Below are positions 28,230-62,498 of a DNA stretch of 64,000 nt, piece after piece. The position numbers and the translations under genes were made by a program. How positions within the stretch are numbered: position 1 is the first letter of the stretch; each line of letters starts with the position of its first letter. The DNA lies in NCBI GenBank assembly GCA_951406725.2, contig OX597826.1:26474001-26538000 (forward strand). Reading direction: 5' to 3'. Origin of the DNA: Octopus vulgaris (lineage: Eukaryota). The notes beneath the pieces were generated by a model. The model saw nothing but the letters and a program-made list of their open reading frames with translations. It made no database searches and was not told the DNA's origin.

Positions 28230-28725
28230 CATCTACTTCCATTTCTGTAAGCTTATTCTATTTCACCTCTCACTCTAGACCTCTCCACTATTAGTTTACT
28301 GCTAATTTCTTTCTTTCTCCTCCTTCTTTTTCTATAAACTACCTTTGACGTTATATCTACTAACGATTAAAAAAATCTTGTTAGCGTTCCCTTCATCATA
28401 TACACAGTCATCACATTCTGTTAAAATGTCTTATTGATGTGTTTGGTTTCTTTCTTTCCTTGATGAGAAGATTGCATTGTTTTACACCATTTTGTTCCGT
28501 CTTCGAAACATATGTCGGAAGTAAAATAATTTGAATAACACCGGCGTTTAACTCCATTAATTTATCTATATATATATGTGTACATGTATATATATATATA
28601 TATATAAAATTGCATATGCATTAATTTTTATATACAAACTGATGACAGAATGAAGGATGAACTTTATATGATATATTTTATGTATTTCTGTACGCATTTG
28701 AGTACAAATATGTGCGTGTGTGTGT

Positions 28726-30216: not shown

Positions 30217-32560
30217 AATCAGGTGTCCTTTTGATCCCAAAAGATGAACATTGCACGCTGTTGTTTCGGACACTTCTCCTGGAGTTGACGGGCACGAACG
30301 ATCATATCAATTGTGCCTCGAGAAGTTCGAATACCACACTGAGACTCAGGGAGTACGTTTTCTGCGAGGATGAGGAAGCGATTGGGTAGGATACGGGTGA
30401 AGATCTTACTTCCAATACTCAAGAGAGATGTCCCGATAGTTGTTGCAATCCTCTCAGTCTCCCTGCTTGTAGATGGTGATGATAGTTGCATCGCGGAAGT
30501 CGTTCGGGGGGGGGAGGGTTCTTGCTTTTCCAGATCCTGATGATAAGGAGCATCAAATGATTTGTCAGCTGAGGACCTCTGTGCATGAAAAACTCAAACG
30601 GGATGTTGTCTGGTCCTGGAGCTTTCTCCGGCATCATGTGCGCAAGTGCTTTGTTGATCTCATGGCTTGAGGGTGGCAGGGACATCCGATTGCGGATGGG
30701 GAGCTGTGGGGTGTTTTGGAGGAGATCATCAGGAGTGCGTATGTGGTCGTTAAGTATGCACTCGAAATGGGACTTCCAGCGATCGAGGTTTCCATGGGTG
30801 TCGGTTATAGTAGAGCCAGCTGCGTTCTTCAGGTCATCCACTAATGACCTTGTAGGGCCGAAGATCTTGGTTGCAGCATAAAAGCTGTGCAATGGTCCGG
30901 ATAGTTTTGAGTCTCCCATGGCACAGATATTATGAGCTTCTCAAATCCCTCGCTGGCATTCCGTTGATGCTTGCTGGTGTTTACTTTTGTTCTCCGCAGT
31001 GGCATGGTTCTCGGAATTTGGTTTAGAAAACATGGGAGATGGTTTCATCATTCTCGTCAAACCAGTCTTGGTCCTTCTTTCGGGCAAGGCCGATTTCCTC
31101 CTCGGCGACAGCGGTCATTGCTTCACGAAGGCTGGTCCAGCGATTCTCAATAGAGCTTGGCTCTGGGAGGTTCATCAGATGTATCTCAATAGATTCCCTG
31201 AAGTCTTGGGATGCCTATGAGATCCGGTGTTTGGCGCAATCGAAGCGTCAATACGGGATACTTCCTGTGACCCGCTTTGGTGGACTGCAGATGTGATGGT
31301 AAGAAATAAGAAGGCGGTGGTCCATCATCTGTATCAGGCATGGAGCGGGTGATACGTACATCTCCTCTGTCACTGTCACTGGATCTTGTTAGAAAGTGGT
31401 CGAGAATGTACCAGTGTTTAGACAATGGGTGTTTTCAGGTTTTTTTGTCGGGTAGGGAGACGAAATATGCAGTTGGTCATGACGAGTTCGTGCTCGCCGT
31501 AAGGCCCAAGAGGAACTAGCCATCGGCATTGCATTTCCCAATGGCGTGGTGACCAAGAATGCCATTCCACAAACAATGGTCACTGCCGACTCTGCCGTTA
31601 AAGTTCCCCAGCACGACGTGTTTGTCATGTGCAGGTACTGTCTGGATGGTGCGGTCTAGCAGGTTGTAGAACGAAGTTTTGATGTCGTCTTCAGATGTGA
31701 GTGTAGGGGCATACACAGATATCAGCCTAAGGAATCTGTCCCGAAAGAGTGAGATCCGAATAGTCATCAGGCGCTAACTGACAGCAGTTGGGACGAGTCT
31801 GTGTTGATCCAAGAGTTGCGTTTTGATGGCAGAGCCAACTCCATGGATGCGTGGTTCATTAGCATTCTTCCCCTTCCAAAATATGGTGGATTTGGAGCCA
31901 GCTTCTCTGATGCTGCCTTCTCCAGGAAGCCTAGTCTCGCTCAAGTCTGCCACATCGATGTTGAAGCCGTCAAGTACCTTGCTGACGTGGGCTGTATGTC
32001 ACTCTGTTCGATTAATGTCACTCTTGTCCTGAAGTGTGCGGATGTTCCAGGCCACGAAATTGAGAAGTTGTGAAACAGAGGATTTAATTGAGTTCAGACC
32101 GCTAAGTGGGAGGTCCGCCAGCAACGGTATGCTGGCTAGATCGAGTTGCCGTGTCCGATGTTTACACCACCTTTTCTAGGGTCTTCCCCTTGAGGGGTGG
32201 GCTGCGGCTATCCTAAGGGCCCAGCCCAGTCACGACTCTAGCTGCCGAACTCCAATATCACGGCTATTCACTGGAGAGCGACTGAGATCCGCCGCCAATG
32301 TGTGGTCACGGACTAGAGGCTTCCAGCTTTCCAGACCTGCCTCTGGTCCCCACGATACCATCGACATTGGGCGTTTTGAGACAGATTAGAAAGATGAAGG
32401 AATTCATGGAGTAAATTGTTTATAAGTGATCGTGTAAATAAGTGATCGTGGCTGCACTTGGCCAGGAATGTCTCCATGGCGGATCAAGTATCAATGGAAC
32501 ACACAATCTTTTGGAATCACTGGAACACGCAAGCTCTTCCACCACAAGGGACGACCATCA
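30217..32560 (-). mobile_element. Decayed RTE-clade LINE (5' UTR, AP endonuclease, start of RT)
   Basis: Minus-strand NFVAWNIRTL, DLSETRLPGEGS, MTIRISL..ISVYAPT, LGNFNGRVG, KHWYILDHFL, KAPGPDNIP and LPESQCGIR..RGTIDMI..ARQLQEKC. RTE-like 5' motif ccttgtggtggaagagcttgcgtg near 32530-32550. Multiple frameshifts. Confidence 0.9.
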
Positions 32561-40495: not shown

Positions 40496-41174
40496 GTGAG
40501 TTATAGAGTAAACAAATTTTTACAGTGGGAACCGTAGTAAAAACAGGGAGAGAGAAATTGTATTATCAACAATAAAAGGGTAAAATAAATTAATTATTAA
40601 TTAATTTCACCAATTAGTGTTCAGTATGTAAAAGGACCATTCAAGGTATATTTAAAATATTACGTTATATAATTAGGGCTCAGTAAAATAATATACTTTA
40701 CCAGACACTGAAACTTTTAGAAATAGCAGCCAAAAAGTTTTATTAGCTATTTCTTCTACTATAAGAAAAGTCTCCCAGATAGTGTTTACTCAAAAATAAT
40801 TCACGCAGATATGGAGGGAAAAATAACAAATTATCACATGTACAAAGATCATTTGAGAACGTTAACGTTTCTAGATTAGTTGAATTTAAAACTCAACACA
40901 ATACAATTTCTCTCTCTCAGTTTTTACTACGGTTCTCACTGTAAAAATTTGTTAACTCTATAACTCACGTGGATGGAAGCGGGAGGAATGCAGAGCCTCA
41001 TTCGTACTTTTTGAATTTGCTGGTACTGGCAGTTGAAAATGGTTTGTCTGAGATTACTCATATCAGATGGGTATGTTCGATTTTTAGTGCTCTCAAATCC
41101 AAATATAAGAAATATTGAGCTGACGAAGGAAGTGTTGAGTTTTAAATTCAACTAATCTAGAAACGTTAACGTTC
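40496..41174. mobile_element. Hammerhead-bearing inverted/permuted element, copy 1
   Basis: Interleaved inverted pairs ~40496-40564/40900-40968 and ~40857-40899/41132-41174; homologous to the 59 kb element. Confidence 0.75.
41115..41174 (+). ncRNA. Type I hammerhead-like ribozyme truncated just after its cleavage site
   Basis: TTGAG-CTGACGA-A-GGA-agt-GTTGAGT-tttaa-ATTCAAC-taa-TCT-A-GAAA-CG-ttaa-CGT-T. The missing stem I 3' strand (CTCAA) is seen in the inverted copy near 40852-40857. Confidence 0.65.
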
Positions 41175-42449: not shown

Positions 42450-42529
<80 letters not shown>

Positions 42530-42533
42530 TATA

Positions 42534-43190
42534 ACAAAAGAAAAATTCTAATGCCATATATGCCGAAAAAAAGACAAAATTGTCAATAACCATTATAATT
42601 TATGCGCCTCGAAACAAACCGATAGAAATTTCTAAAAATTCCGTTATTACCGTATTGGTCCCAATTTCGGGGTTAATTCATAAGAAGTTTTCGAAAAAAG
42701 AAATTTTTCCTACATTGGTTGTAAATTTAATAGTGTTCACTTCCGGATTCTCTCTCTCTGTGAAAGTTTCTAGATCGAATCACACGTGTCTCGAGATGTG
42801 CCGAAGATTTTCTATCTTTTATATATTTGGGGTACTTAGGTCTGCTCAGGACTTAGTGCTTGCTTTTTCCATGGGTATGAGTAAGTATTCCATTTATGTC
42901 TTACGTATTTATCGCTGAAGAGGGGAAAATTCTTATGAATTAACCCCGAAATTAGGACCAATACGGTAATAATGGATTTTTTAGAAATTTCTATCGGTTT
43001 GTTTCGAGGCGCATAAATTATAATGGTTATTGACAATTTTGTATTTTTTTCGGCATATTTGGCATTAGAATTTTTCTTTTGCCCTTATTTTGTAAGTTAT
43101 TAATAAATTTAACCTTTAAATGTATTTTTTTATATGCTGGCCATTGATAAATTTTTTTTTTCGAAAAATAAAATTTATCCTACATTAGTT
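42534..43190. mobile_element. Hammerhead-bearing inverted/permuted element, copy 2, inside (AT)n
   Basis: Inverted arms ~42534-42690/42925-43082; direct 30 bp redundancy 42691-42720/43161-43190; (AT)n on both flanks. Confidence 0.8.
42909..42969 (+). ncRNA. Type I hammerhead ribozyme
   Basis: Stem I TTATCG/CGGTAA; core CTGAAGA; stem II GGGG-aaa-ATTC-ttat-GAAT-taa-CCCC; GAAA; stem III ATT(a/g)-ggac-CAAT (fully paired in the inverted copy); predicted cleavage after ATA at 42963. Confidence 0.8.
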
Positions 43191-44139
43191 ATATATATAT
43201 ATATATATATACATTTGTCTCTCCCTATATAGTAAATATTTAATTCAAAAGTTCTAAAAGAAACAGGAACATTTTATATCGAAATATACCAACATAGTAA
43301 AATTTAAACCAAAATTAAATGCATTTTGAAAAATTTAAGCAGTATTTATATAACAATTTCTGGATTGTGGATTCTAATCTCATTGTTGATAATATCACAA
43401 ATGTTTTTCACGGTTTTGGTAATATTTGTTTTACTTGGTATTGGTAACTGTGTTTAATATGGCCAACTGTTTCAAACTCATTCTGGTTTCGATCCCATTC
43501 TGTGACATCTTGAGTAAGTAACTTTTACTATAAGACTAGGTTTAACCAAAATCTTTTCAGTAAAAATTGGTTGACGGAAATTCGGTTGGGGTTTGCCGCC
43601 TGTAAGCGTAATACAATATAAACCTGATAGACTGTATCCGTGATTTGTAGGTCCCAGCGTTATTACACATTCTGCCGTGGAAGTTCTCCGGAACAATCAC
43701 TTTAAGGATATATGTATCTGTGGAATACTTTCAACGCTGATTCCATACGCAGACATTTTAATTCGTCGAACAAATAAATATTCTTCGTCGATAGTGAAAA
43801 TCCATTGCAAAAAGTAAGTAGTGGTGTCGCAATGTAAGAAGTCCTTATTTACAGCAGTCTCAGTAAGCTACTTCTATGTGACACGCAACCTGCAAAAATT
43901 ATATGCGTAAGAGAATACTGCTACAGGTAAAATATGTCCGAAAGTATGATGTAGTAGACACGGCAGGAACGCCTTTGTCCAATTACCTGCTCTGCTCCAT
44001 CAGGAGCTGCCAGGAATTGCGCATGGAAAAAACCATAAAGCAATTGTTATATATATATCAGGGAAGTGCAAAGGAGAGGAAGGGGTGGAAACAATTGTTT
44101 TAATTTCTTGCATGCGTATTGTTTGTTTTTGATTTTGTC

Positions 44140-51576: not shown

Positions 51577-52118
51577 GCCCTGATGCAGTACCATGCAGTG
51601 GCTCTCATGGCTTCTGATCTTAACTGATTGGAAGTGCTATCATGTACATTGTTTTGTATAAAAGATGGGCTACAGCAAATATTCTGCTCAATACCACAGA
51701 TTTGCTAGTCAGTTGTTTAACCTTAACCAGTTGACCATGTCCCTTGGTGGATGACGATATGTGCATCTCTGATCACGAGCAGAAGTAGTGGGGGAGCATC
51801 ATAGCCATGTGTTGAAAGCAATTCTTAGAGGTTTGGGTAATTCACCTTAGGAAACACGGGTGATTCGTTCAACGTCCTTAAACAATTCAGGGACCTTTTG
51901 AGCGGGATGGGCTACTCGACCAGAAGAAAATTCTAACTGGGCCCCACCTGCAAGGTCATGTGCTGTTTATCTTGATATGAGATCACCATGTCGCGCACAT
52001 ATGGTTGTGATGCATGTGTCTGGTGTACCCTTATCATACAGGTAGTCATGATGGGTATACTGGGCTTTGTATATTTTACCCCAGTGTCACTTTGATGGCA
52101 TGCACTGCTCTCTCACTC
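51575..52118. mobile_element. ~540 bp non-coding interspersed element embedded in (AAT)n
   Basis: Sharp boundaries with (AAT)n on both sides; collinear with a second copy at ~50725-51485. Confidence 0.75.
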
Positions 52119-52165
<47 letters not shown>

Positions 52166-52181
52166 TAATAATAATAATAAT

Positions 52182-54208
52182 ATATCACAAAGGCTGAACA
52201 AGCACCTGGACGAAAACAAACTGTTCCCAGAAGAGCAGAAAGGATGCCGCAAAGGCTCATATGGCTGTAAAGATCAACTAATGATTAATAAAGCCATAAC
52301 TAAAGACAGCCACAGAAAGAAGAAAGGCCTCAGTATGGCCTGGATTGACTACAAAAAGGCGTTTGAAAGCATCCCCCACACATGGATCCTCGAAACACTA
52401 GCCATTAACAAAGTAACACCAACAATCATAAAATTCATAGAGCACTCTATGAATAAATGGCAAACAGTCCTACACCTCCAAACAAAAGACGGACTCATGA
52501 AAACCAAAGACATCCCCATTAGAAGAGGAATATTCCAGGGAGACACGCTCTCTCCACTCCTTTTCTGCTTGGCACTGTCACCTCTATCTGATATGCTAAA
52601 TAGAACTGGATGCGGATATAAATGTTACGGGAAAACGATCAGCCACCTTTTATATATGGATGACCTAAAACTATACGCTGCAAATGACAAACAGCTGGAA
52701 ACACTATTAAAGACAGTTCATGGATTTACCAAAGAAATAGATATGAAATTTGGATTAGAAAAATGCGCCAAAGTAACCCTGAAAAGAGGAAAACTAGTTA
52801 AGAGTAACAACATCACACTAGATAAAACAAATGAAATAAAAGAATTAGACCAAAGCCAAACTTACAAATACTTAGGAATCCATGAACTAGATAAGACACA
52901 ACACACACAAATGAAAGAGAAAATAAAAAAAGAATATTATAGACGAGTTAGATCAATACTAAACACAGAGCTCAATGCTAAAAACAAGATAATAGGTATC
53001 AACACTTTAGCTGTCCCAGTTATAAGTTACAGCTACAATATCCTTAACTGGACACGAAATGAACTGACCAAAATAGATAGGAAAACAAGAAAAATAATGA
53101 CAGGATCTAGGATGCATCACCCAAAATCTGACATAGAAAGACTATATATACAACGTATAGAAGGTGGTAGAGGCCTTATACAGCTGGAAAACTACTATAA
53201 AATAACCACCATAGGACTGCAAAAATATCTACTTCAGAAGGAAGGAAAACTGATCCAGATAGCGGCAAAACACGAGCAAAACAAAAAACTGTTCTCAGTA
53301 TTTAAGGAAGCTGACAAATACAAACAAGAAATCATACCACCGAATAAACATGAAGAAGAAGAAGATGAAGAAACAACAAAAGCTATAAAACAAATGAAAT
53401 CCAAACTAAAAATAGAACAGCAACGAACCATGATAAAACGATGGCAAGAAAAACCCCTTCATGGTAAATACTGGACTAAACTAAACGCAAAAGAAATAGA
53501 CAAAGAAAAATCCCAGCAATGGTTGAGAAGCTCAGGACTCAAAGCAGAAACAGAGGGATTTTTAATTGCAGCACAAGACCAAAGCCTCCCCACCAGAAAT
53601 TACCAAAAACATGTAATAAAAAGAAATATTACAAGTAACTGCAGAATATGTGGAGATGGACAAGAAACAATAAATCATATTATCTCTAGCTGCCCAGTCT
53701 TGGCTAAGAAGGAATATATTCAGAGACATGACAGAGTTGGAACCTACATACATTGGAAGCTATGCCAACATTATGGAATAACAACAGAAAAAAGATGGTA
53801 TAGGCACACACCAGAAAAGGTCACAGAAAACGAGAAAGCAACCATACTCTGGGATATGCCGATACACACAGATAGAGAAATTAAGGCCAACAGACCAGAT
53901 ATAGTTGTCAGAGATCATGAAAAAAAAAATGCTTTCTAATTGATGTATCAATACCGGCTGATGACAACGTGTCTCTAACAGAAATGGAGAAACTCTCAAA
54001 ATACAAAGACCTGGAAATAGAGGTAACTAGAATGTGGAATCTGAAAACAGAAACAATTCCTATCATAGTAGGTGCATTAGGCATGATAAAAAAATATTCA
54101 GACAAATACATAACAAAAACACCAGGACTTACAAACACATATAACATACAGAAAATTGCACTACTAGGCACTGCACACATCCTACGCAGAACACTTTCCA
54201 TACAATAA
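52182..54208 (+). pseudogene. RT/RLE polyprotein, N-terminally truncated, single frameshift in the A10 run at 53920-53929
   Basis: About 580 uninterrupted codons, then a frame change that rejoins ORF 53969-54208. The ORF-track start at 52014 is upstream non-coding sequence plus AAT repeat. Confidence 0.88.
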
Positions 54209-59003: not shown

Positions 59004-59054
<51 letters not shown>

Positions 59055-59240
59055 TAACAATGAGGGTCTTTGCAACAGGTTGCTAGACCACATACAGAAA
59101 GCATTAGAAATAGCAGCCAGACGACTGTTATTTCTTTTACTACAATAATAAGTGTCCCACAGACAAACGGTATTTGTAACTCACTATGGCAAAAAAAAAA
59201 ACAACGAAGAAAAACAACGAAATCAAACAGTGTCCGGTCA

Positions 59241-59300
59241 ATTATGGACGCATACGTTTCTGGATTAGAATCAGGGATTCATTTCCTTCATCAACATAAT
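59241..59300 (-). ncRNA. Type I hammerhead-like ribozyme (inverted copy)
   Basis: Reverse complement of the motif at 59647-59704, with stem III ACG-tatg-CGT and a GTC site. Confidence 0.7.
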
Positions 59301-59646
59301 ATTCCGATAAATAAATCTAGAAATGCTAGGAAATCTTACCCTCCATATTCCGAACATGCGAAATCGGGGCATACAGAAGCTAATCAGCATATCCACATTT
59401 ATATAGACAAGTGAATTCGTATCTCCCTCCAGAATTTCTCCCACGTGAGTCACAAATAATACTGCCGAAAATGAATTCGTAGTTCCGTCATATGGGGAGT
59501 AAAATAATCAATACAGATAAAGGGTGAAATATAATTCATTTAATGAAATCAACAAATTTCACCAAGTAGTTTTTCGGTATGGAAAAGGACCATATTCGGT
59601 ATGGAGGGTAAGATTTCCTAGCATTTCTAGATTTATTTATCGGAAT

Positions 59647-59704
59647 ATTATGTTGATGAAGGAAATGAATCCCTGATTCTAATCCAGAAACGTGCGTCCA
59701 TAAT
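59647..59704 (+). ncRNA. Type I hammerhead-like ribozyme (variant core)
   Basis: Stem I ATTATG/CATAAT; core TTGATGA plus A; stem II GGA-aat-GAATC-cct-GATTC-taa-TCC; A-GAAA; stem III ACG-tg-CGT; GTC site at 59698. Confidence 0.7.
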
Positions 59705-60238
59705 TGACCGGACACTGTTTGATTTCGTTATTTTTCTTCGTTTTTTTGCCATAGTGAGTTACAAATACTGTTGTCTGTGGGACATATTTTTGTAGTAAAA
59801 GAAATAACAGTCGTCTGGCTGCTATTTCTAATACTTTCGGTATGTGGTCTAGCAACCTGTTGCAAAGACCCTCATTGTTATAATCATATATAATTTTACC
59901 GAATATGGTCCTTTTCCATACCGAAAAACTACTTGGTGAAATTTGTTGATTTTATTAAATTAATTATATTTCACCCTTTATCTGTATACATGTGATACCT
60001 ACAATCACTACAGTAACATATATAGCTTAAACATAGAAAGAAGTCACTATTTTCCTATCATCGTAATCGTTTGTATGGTCTTATCTCTTCTTGTACCCTA
60101 TTTCTATCATCTATACTAAGCATCGCATTCAACATTTCAGATAATTTTGAATCTCAGAACATAGTCCTTCCGTAACGCATCCTCTCTCTGTTTTCGCTAG
60201 AAGCATTAAGTAACAAAATTTAAACTGATCACCAAGGG

Positions 60239-61758: not shown

Positions 61759-61846
61759 ATAGAAGATAAAAGATTTAAGTTACACATACATACATAAATA
61801 TGTGTACATATGTATGTATATGTATCCATATGTTCACGTATAATTG

Positions 61847-61884
<38 letters not shown>

Positions 61885-61927
61885 TAGATAAGAAAGTTGG
61901 TTTGTGAAAGCACGTGGTTGAATATAT

Positions 61928-62246
61928 AGAAAATAGTAAAAAGTGAAAAAACTACAGAAGGCTTAAAGGTTAAAAAATATATATATTTGCGTCAATATGT
62001 CTGAAGAATATTAAAAAAATTTGTTTTCTTACAATGACATAGTTTAGAAGAAAGACCGGTTTCGCGTTTAGCTTTTCAAATTTCTTACGACGTAAGAAAT
62101 TTGAAAAGCTAAACGCGAAACCGGTCTTTCTTCTAAACTATGTCATTGTAAGGAAAAAAATTTTTTTAATATTCTTCAGACATATTGACGCAAATATATA
62201 TATTTTTTAACCTTTAAGCCTTCTGTAGTTTTTTCACTTTATACTA

Positions 62247-62252
<6 letters not shown>
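61928..62252. repeat. Near-perfect 325 bp palindrome (162 bp arms, 1 nt loop at 62090)
   Basis: Arms are reverse complements with only a few mismatches; right flank is (CT)n(AT)n. Confidence 0.92.
62091..62133 (+). ncRNA. 3' half of a hammerhead ribozyme (stem II, GAAA, stem III, GTC), mirrored on the minus strand
   Basis: CGT-aag...taa-ACG-C-GAAAC-CG-GTC; the CTGANGA part is absent at the hairpin apex. Confidence 0.5.
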
Positions 62253-62342
<90 letters not shown>

Positions 62343-62498
62343 ATATACATACATACATACATACATATATATGTGTGAGTATTTGTATGTGTGAATGCAT
62401 AATTGAATGTGTCTGTGTGTGTGTGTGTGTGTCTTAGAATATTCCTCGAAATGGGAGATGTGCAAACTTAATTATCTGTGCGTGTCTGAGTGAGACCA

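Follow-up and report, generated by a model that had tools for sequence, protein, structure and literature searches.

The 64,000-nucleotide stretch of the Octopus vulgaris genome analysed here (contig OX597826.1, positions 26,474,001 to 26,538,000; hereafter the window, whose numbering is used throughout) carries a hammerhead ribozyme motif at 42535-43190, within a rearranged sequence set between two runs of alternating A and T. What kind of element does this sequence represent, how did it enter a microsatellite and is its ribozyme likely to function? Our analysis points to a single inserted unit, already aged, of a non-coding repeat that is 470 nt long, occurs in many copies and carries a type I hammerhead motif. 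The repeat is likely a non-autonomous Penelope-like element (a non-LTR retrozyme), and a Penelope-type RT/endonuclease (RT/EN) would have written the window copy into (TA)n from both cut DNA ends. We assign this reading a probability of roughly 80%.

Anatomy of the insertion

The element is flanked by a (TA)n microsatellite on the left (42455-42533) and by 21 nt of (AT)n on the right (43191-43211), in agreement with a preliminary description of the locus that had placed it inside (AT)n. Its plus arm consists of one complete non-coding 470-nt unit (42721-43190) with a GC content of 31% and a highly structured predicted fold (z -4.9), preceded on the same strand by the last 30 nt of a preceding unit (42691-42720). 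The terminal 30-nt stretches of this arm lie 470 nt apart and are identical at 26 of 30 positions, or at 29 of 33 if the TTTTC overlap is included, so that 42691-43190 indeed represents slightly more than one turn of a 470-nt unit as originally described. The second arm (42535-42690, minus strand) is a 156-nt copy of unit positions 42926-43081, matches their reverse complement with 96% identity and does not include the CUGANGA core of the hammerhead. Both arms have TTTTC in common at their joint (42688-42692), a microhomology located at the center of the unit's 3' hairpin. This agrees with the inverted piece of ca. 157 nt joined through TTTTC that had been noted before.

The 3' part of the unit contains the two sites that define the ends of the family discussed below. 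Site B, the second fixed 3' end, is internal in the plus arm (43095-43100), and an A/T hairpin (43146-43179) is located directly ahead of site A (43180-43190), the main fixed 3' end at 43190. Upstream of the hammerhead, both subfamilies of the repeat possess a splice-donor-like GTAAGT motif (42881-42886, plus strand); unit-covering contigs that we guess to be RNA-derived contain no spliced joint. Two open reading frames were considered and rejected as coding, namely a 127-codon chance frame spanning the inversion and a short frame inside the unit that is common to both subfamilies and whose changes are, as judged by eye, mostly non-synonymous. No RT/EN similarity was matched within the window.

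A dispersed family with two fixed 3' ends

To the preliminary description, a lack of other genomic copies would have been fatal. Searching the genome (2.8 Gb, 227 contigs), we identified 3,541 first-look candidates for the unit, 40 of which were scored, and 3,043 exact matches to a 20-mer of the unit (1,520 + 1,523) compared to 0 for a control, a number that does not equal the number of copies since many insertions contain the word twice. Copies are dispersed and mostly adjoin (TA)n, and upstream extensions of copies consist of another unit. A second subfamily is ca. 79% identical to the first, and sequence related to the unit is present in sequencing runs from four organisms. At ten loci, two same-strand cores are found 460-476 nt apart, representing tandem units that each carry a hammerhead.

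The 5' ends of the insertions vary while their 3' ends do not. 174 mapped 5' breakpoints are spread around the entire unit. They cluster mildly at the 3' hairpin, the place at which the window copy also breaks, and this cluster is partly an effect of the query. The terminal redundancy previously regarded as a feature of the element consequently has to be abandoned as such, and the 30 nt at 42691-42720 mark a 5' truncation point instead of a fixed feature. The fixed features of the family are its 3' ends, of which there are two: 43190 (site A) and, ca. 90 nt upstream, ca. 43095-43100 (site B). Among 46 two-armed insertions, drawn from a sample whose end counts are biased because the first 60 loci were picked with queries ending at site A, 30 combine A with B, one combines A with A, two combine B with B and 13 possess at least one end elsewhere. 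To accommodate the second subfamily in this count, the limits of site B were extended to 393-424 and those of site A to at least 485, and L150, which duplicates L149, was left out. Among the two-armed insertions retrieved by a hammerhead-centered query, A+B pairing is observed in 9 of 12 cases. The window copy combines site A with an inverted arm whose outer end stops 15-20 nt before site B and is counted among the 13.

Several hallmarks of Penelope-like insertions are found in the family, including partial tandem copies, 5' truncation, an adjacent inverted copy and a microsatellite target without clear target-site duplication. The unit is non-coding and its GC content of 31% lies below 45%.

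A type I hammerhead with compensatory changes in all three stems

The hammerhead of the window copy spans 42909-42969 on the plus strand. Stem I is formed by 42909-42914 and 42964-42969 and encloses the core sequence CTGAAGA (42915-42921), stem II with GGGG/CCCC pairing and a 5-bp extension (42922-42947), GAAA (42948-42951), stem III (42951-42962) and an AUA triplet with a predicted cut after 42963. The CUGANGA, GAAA and NUH elements thus occur in type I order, and the core is as fully canonical as had been claimed. Rfam returned no hammerhead match to the window motif, neither at the gathering score nor at E ≤ 10, which leaves core pattern and covariation, and not a library match, as the basis of the assignment.

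Covariation was assessed in an alignment of 54 of 82 extracted hammerhead segments (52 distinct), mostly one per locus, from which gapped segments were dropped and 10 further pieces without the anchor motif were left out. Across the 52 distinct rows, 96.7% of cells are paired compared to 27-49% in slid controls. Double changes are found at pairs 18-68, 26-51, 28-49, 57-64 and 14-72 and cover all three stems. They mostly reflect a single split between the two subfamilies, amounting to about five events, and the count of pairs with a double change did not beat a shuffle control (79 of 500). Core position 7 is variable (A, G, C or U) and the other core bases are constant between the subfamily majorities. 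When the whole unit was folded jointly for both subfamilies, only three double changes were present, all of them within the hammerhead. Retention of the core combined with compensatory changes in all three stems of two subfamilies indicates selection for the hammerhead fold in the source elements.

The A/T-rich, hairpin-rich character of the sequence and its location in a microsatellite might instead suggest that the tandem and inverted pieces arose through DNA-level events after insertion, such as slippage or fold-back, and that the hammerhead is a chance motif. One locus (L102), where two units have 7 rare variants in common, looks as expected from later duplication. However, thousands of dispersed copies share two fixed ends, A+B pairings outnumber same-site pairings 30 to 3 and compensatory changes are confined to the hammerhead. 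The end statistics and covariation already largely refute this explanation, and we consider it hardly tenable.

How readily the selected fold would form was investigated by folding predictions. Even for intact copies, energy minimization failed to recover the three-way fold, and in the alignment fold, CUGA pairs with the 5' strand of stem III instead, representing a rival pairing. Stem III is near-palindromic with predicted dimer duplexes of -12.3 and -15.0 kcal/mol, and good dimer pairing via stem III has been described for tandem hammerheads (PMC4209133). Source elements are likely to self-cleave, perhaps best as dimers or with the help of a protein.

Condition and age of the window copy

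The window copy carries a G-to-A change relative to the family majority at 42954 (plus strand), leading to an A·C mismatch in stem III. The break in stem III at this position had already been pointed out and is confirmed by comparison with the family: the fourth pair is disrupted, and 27 of 29 other aligned copies possess G or a one-G-shorter run, while A is found in L018 (by eye). A42954 is also predicted to strengthen the rival pairing of the CUGA core. According to nearest-neighbor calculations that omit tertiary contacts, the active fold would cost 9.1 kcal/mol in the window copy and 5.8 kcal/mol with the majority base restored at 42954, compared to 3.2-5.1 kcal/mol in eight other natural copies. 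The stem III dimer duplex of the window copy is predicted at -4.7 kcal/mol, substantially weaker than the two values given above.

A full core without any stem mismatch is present in 24 of the 54 aligned segments, and the window copy is not one of them. Its earlier designation as the best candidate for activity is consequently supported only with respect to the window, where it possesses the sole intact CUGA among the hammerhead-like motifs seen (those at 28460 and ca. 59652 read UUGA). Within the family, the stem III mismatch and stronger rival pairing place it behind the fully intact copies. Nonetheless, the copy retains every core base, stems I and II and three pairs of stem III, and many natural hammerheads contain a stem III of just 1-2 bp (PMC4209133), which would be in line with a window copy that is still an efficient self-cleaving ribozyme. 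The predicted folding cost, which exceeds that of the eight other copies even with the majority base, and the weakened dimer duplex make this unlikely. We regard the window copy as a poor candidate for activity that is predicted to be impaired and is probably inert. With a single core, it could also not release unit-length RNA.

At non-diagnostic sites, the window copy differs from the family majority by 2.2%, and its two arms differ from each other at 6 of 154 positions. Based on an octopus calibration in which a distance of 0.09 corresponds to 25 million years (PMC13282606), the insertion would be roughly 5-6 million years old. An insertion of this age is likely fixed, and the empty (AT)n alleles proposed as a test in the preliminary description are unlikely to be found in other individuals given that the arms have drifted apart at 6 of 154 positions since insertion. 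Contigs from sequencing runs break at (TA)n.

The template and its priming

Both arms of the window copy run across the predicted cut site. A pattern search for insertions starting at the cut site returned 43 matches with ca. 6 expected by control. Upon inspection by eye, 5 of these are family-flanked insertions whose start lies within 0-1 nt of the cut, and another 3 are ambiguous. The positions 13 nt and 15 nt upstream of the cut are each the start of 5-6 insertions as well, and the 5-8 cut-site starts have to be compared with 1,874 candidates for the hammerhead query, representing at most a weak excess. Arms that cross the cut site combined with few starts at this site argue against a cleaved linear monomer as the usual template.

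Subfamily alleles offer a second view of the template. Within an insertion, allele mismatches are found at 1 of 47 comparisons between inverted arms (18 pairs) and 20 of 201 between tandem units (37 pairs), with a mismatch of 47% between loci and a background of 4.5%. In the window copy, both arms have a rare G at 43009 in common. A template in the form of a circle, or of a homogeneous multimer that was not cleaved, is compatible with such allele sharing between arms. The tandem units of L101, L105 and L107 show linked haplotype differences and would therefore not derive from one monomer circle without template switching or later conversion. In L102, the 7 rare variants common to both tandem units include a change at the cleavage triplet, which may represent either a cleavage-dead RNA copied twice or a later duplication of the locus.

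The structure of the window copy can be accounted for by the following sequence of events. A Penelope-type enzyme would nick both strands of (TA)n. One DNA end would prime at site A and copy back across a complete unit plus 30 nt of the following one, while the other would prime near site B and copy 156 nt. The two cDNAs would then join at TTTTC. The template for both would be a ligated circle or an uncleaved multimer. A more specific proposal, to which we give slightly less than even odds, is that two-armed insertions record Penelope-type priming of two cut ends on a single retrozyme RNA circle, at two fixed sites separated by ca. 90 nt and with copying through the re-ligated hammerhead, and that L101, L105 and L107 result from dimeric circles or template switches. 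If this is true, the family would constitute a genomic read-out of animal retrozyme mobilization.

Search for an autonomous partner

The genome contains Penelope-like genes with 781-codon RT and GIY-YIG open frames that, like the 470-nt family, end in (TA)n. Among the loci examined, which were extracted with 1.5 kb of flank only, none contained an autonomous partner that shares the unit. A pattern derived from loose contig ends led no further in this respect, as its 9 matches were all ordinary point variants. The 781-codon family was rejected as a partner as it shows no similarity to the unit beyond independent neighboring insertions. This family (L051-L060) is young, with protein identities of 98-99.5% in most copies and 95% in L052 and L060, and encodes a separate upstream frame of ca. 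350 codons in addition to the 781-codon frame. It possesses pseudo-LTRs (pLTRs) and a minimal hammerhead that is degenerate, together with a tail of ca. 30-35 nt that is optional. RT/EN fragments near L009, L113, L125, L142 and L183 were likewise dismissed, being inverted, distant or separated by a microsatellite (L110 was left out). In L025, a GIY-YIG endonuclease fragment is located directly upstream of the unit, joined to it through a short inverted piece (locus positions 1962-2333). This arrangement was rejected as a partner and represents a chimera with another Penelope-like family, which could stem from a template switch inside one RT complex.

An alternative to a non-autonomous element is that the unit is the solo pLTR of a Penelope-like element that is itself autonomous and is represented outside our sample by full-length copies. 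The anatomy of the unit matches that of pLTRs, the donor-like GTAAGT ahead of the hammerhead is reminiscent of Penelope 5' introns (PMC8557442) and the 1.5 kb flanks together with the endonuclease fragment immediately upstream of one copy, L025, leave room for such a partner. However, the family of the L025 fragment has its own 3' end and is followed by the unit in 0 of 29 other copies, upstream extensions lead into another unit, with up to about four pieces in L143, and a family profile run against the RT/EN genes in loci L031-L095 gave no adjacent pLTR match. We consider a solo pLTR quite improbable and favor a non-autonomous element mobilized by a Penelope-type enzyme.

Other elements in the window and genome

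Additional repeats with related features are present in the window. A two-armed element at 59043-59987 adjoins (TA)n, possesses inverted arms of 93-98% identity and contains a hammerhead-like motif with a UUGAUGA core at ca. 59652; it likely belongs to a separate family of this kind. In the hammerhead-like motif at 28450-28520, UUGAUGA and GAAA occur together with a long stem II and a stem III formed by the palindrome CAUAUG; the motif ends near (TA)n and resembles minimal Penelope hammerheads. Further short-range inverted repeats are located at 40496-41174, with A/T-rich ends similar to those of the 59 kb element, and at 61781-62387. LINE-type sequences are represented by a frame of 642 codons that matches RVT_1 and zf-RVT (52011-53939) and by broken RT fragments (30219-30940). 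Elsewhere in the genome, a distant family (L195-L224, 1,694 candidates) carries its own type I hammerhead motif, the stem III of which is palindromic, and also shows a similar 3' tail motif together with two ends and inverted arms.

Comparison with known systems

We found no description of the 470-nt family in the main texts of the literature searched; it may be listed in supplements or repeat databases. The word Octopus is absent from the main text, as far as available, of two studies of metazoan retrozymes (PMC7229834; 10.64898/2026.07.22.740005), and the corresponding text of the octopus repeat annotation (PMC13282606) mentions no hammerhead, ribozyme or retrozyme. A literature search on retrozymes in cephalopods led only to PMC8557442. 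The window copy itself is ordinary and the family of modest importance. Its insertions do, however, carry a Penelope footprint directly, for a mobilization so far proposed and supported by phylogeny, and its two subfamilies represent natural compensatory variants for cleavage work.

Metazoan non-LTR retrozymes, as characterized in PMC7229834 and 10.64898/2026.07.22.740005, are similar to the octopus family in consisting of non-coding, low-GC tandem units that each carry a type I hammerhead and in occurring as monomers, dimers and short multimers. In contrast to their ca. 170-400 nt monomers, a range that is descriptive and not a strict boundary, the octopus unit is 470 nt long. The octopus family mostly comprises one to two turns whereas metazoan non-LTR retrozymes form long arrays, and the window copy, known here from DNA, is a solo insertion with one core. 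Penelope-like elements have been proposed as the mobilizer of animal retrozymes (PMC7229834), a proposal backed by phylogeny (10.64898/2026.07.22.740005).

Penelope-like insertions and their pLTRs, as described in PMC8557442, share with the octopus family partial tandems, 5' truncation and an inverted, likewise 5'-truncated copy next to them, as well as a tail at a single end and the use of microsatellites as targets. A hammerhead within the repeat is another common feature, and a non-autonomous pLTR-forming element, MRC1, has been described (PMC8557442; PMC4209133). Unlike autonomous Penelope-like elements, the octopus unit is found without an RT/GIY-YIG gene within 1.5 kb flanks. Its one-ended tail is ca. 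90 nt long compared to 30-40 nt in Penelope-like elements (PMC8557442), and its near-palindromic stem III contains 4 bp whereas Penelope-like hammerheads are minimal (PMC4209133).

The closest biochemical counterpart is PAc (Poseidon), for which in vitro work reports cleavage and extension of both DNA strands at AT-rich sites, two RT start sites that define the tail, uncleaved RNA as the main template and a hammerhead that requires protein (PMC11167929). PAc is autonomous and its RT starts lie inside its ORF, in contrast to the non-coding octopus unit. Transferring the PAc mechanism to A+B pairing is our inference by analogy, and a different start site for each DNA end is suggested by the genomic ends and not taken from the PAc study. 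From A+B pairing, in turn, a prediction follows that can be tested on the two RT start sites observed in vitro (PMC11167929).
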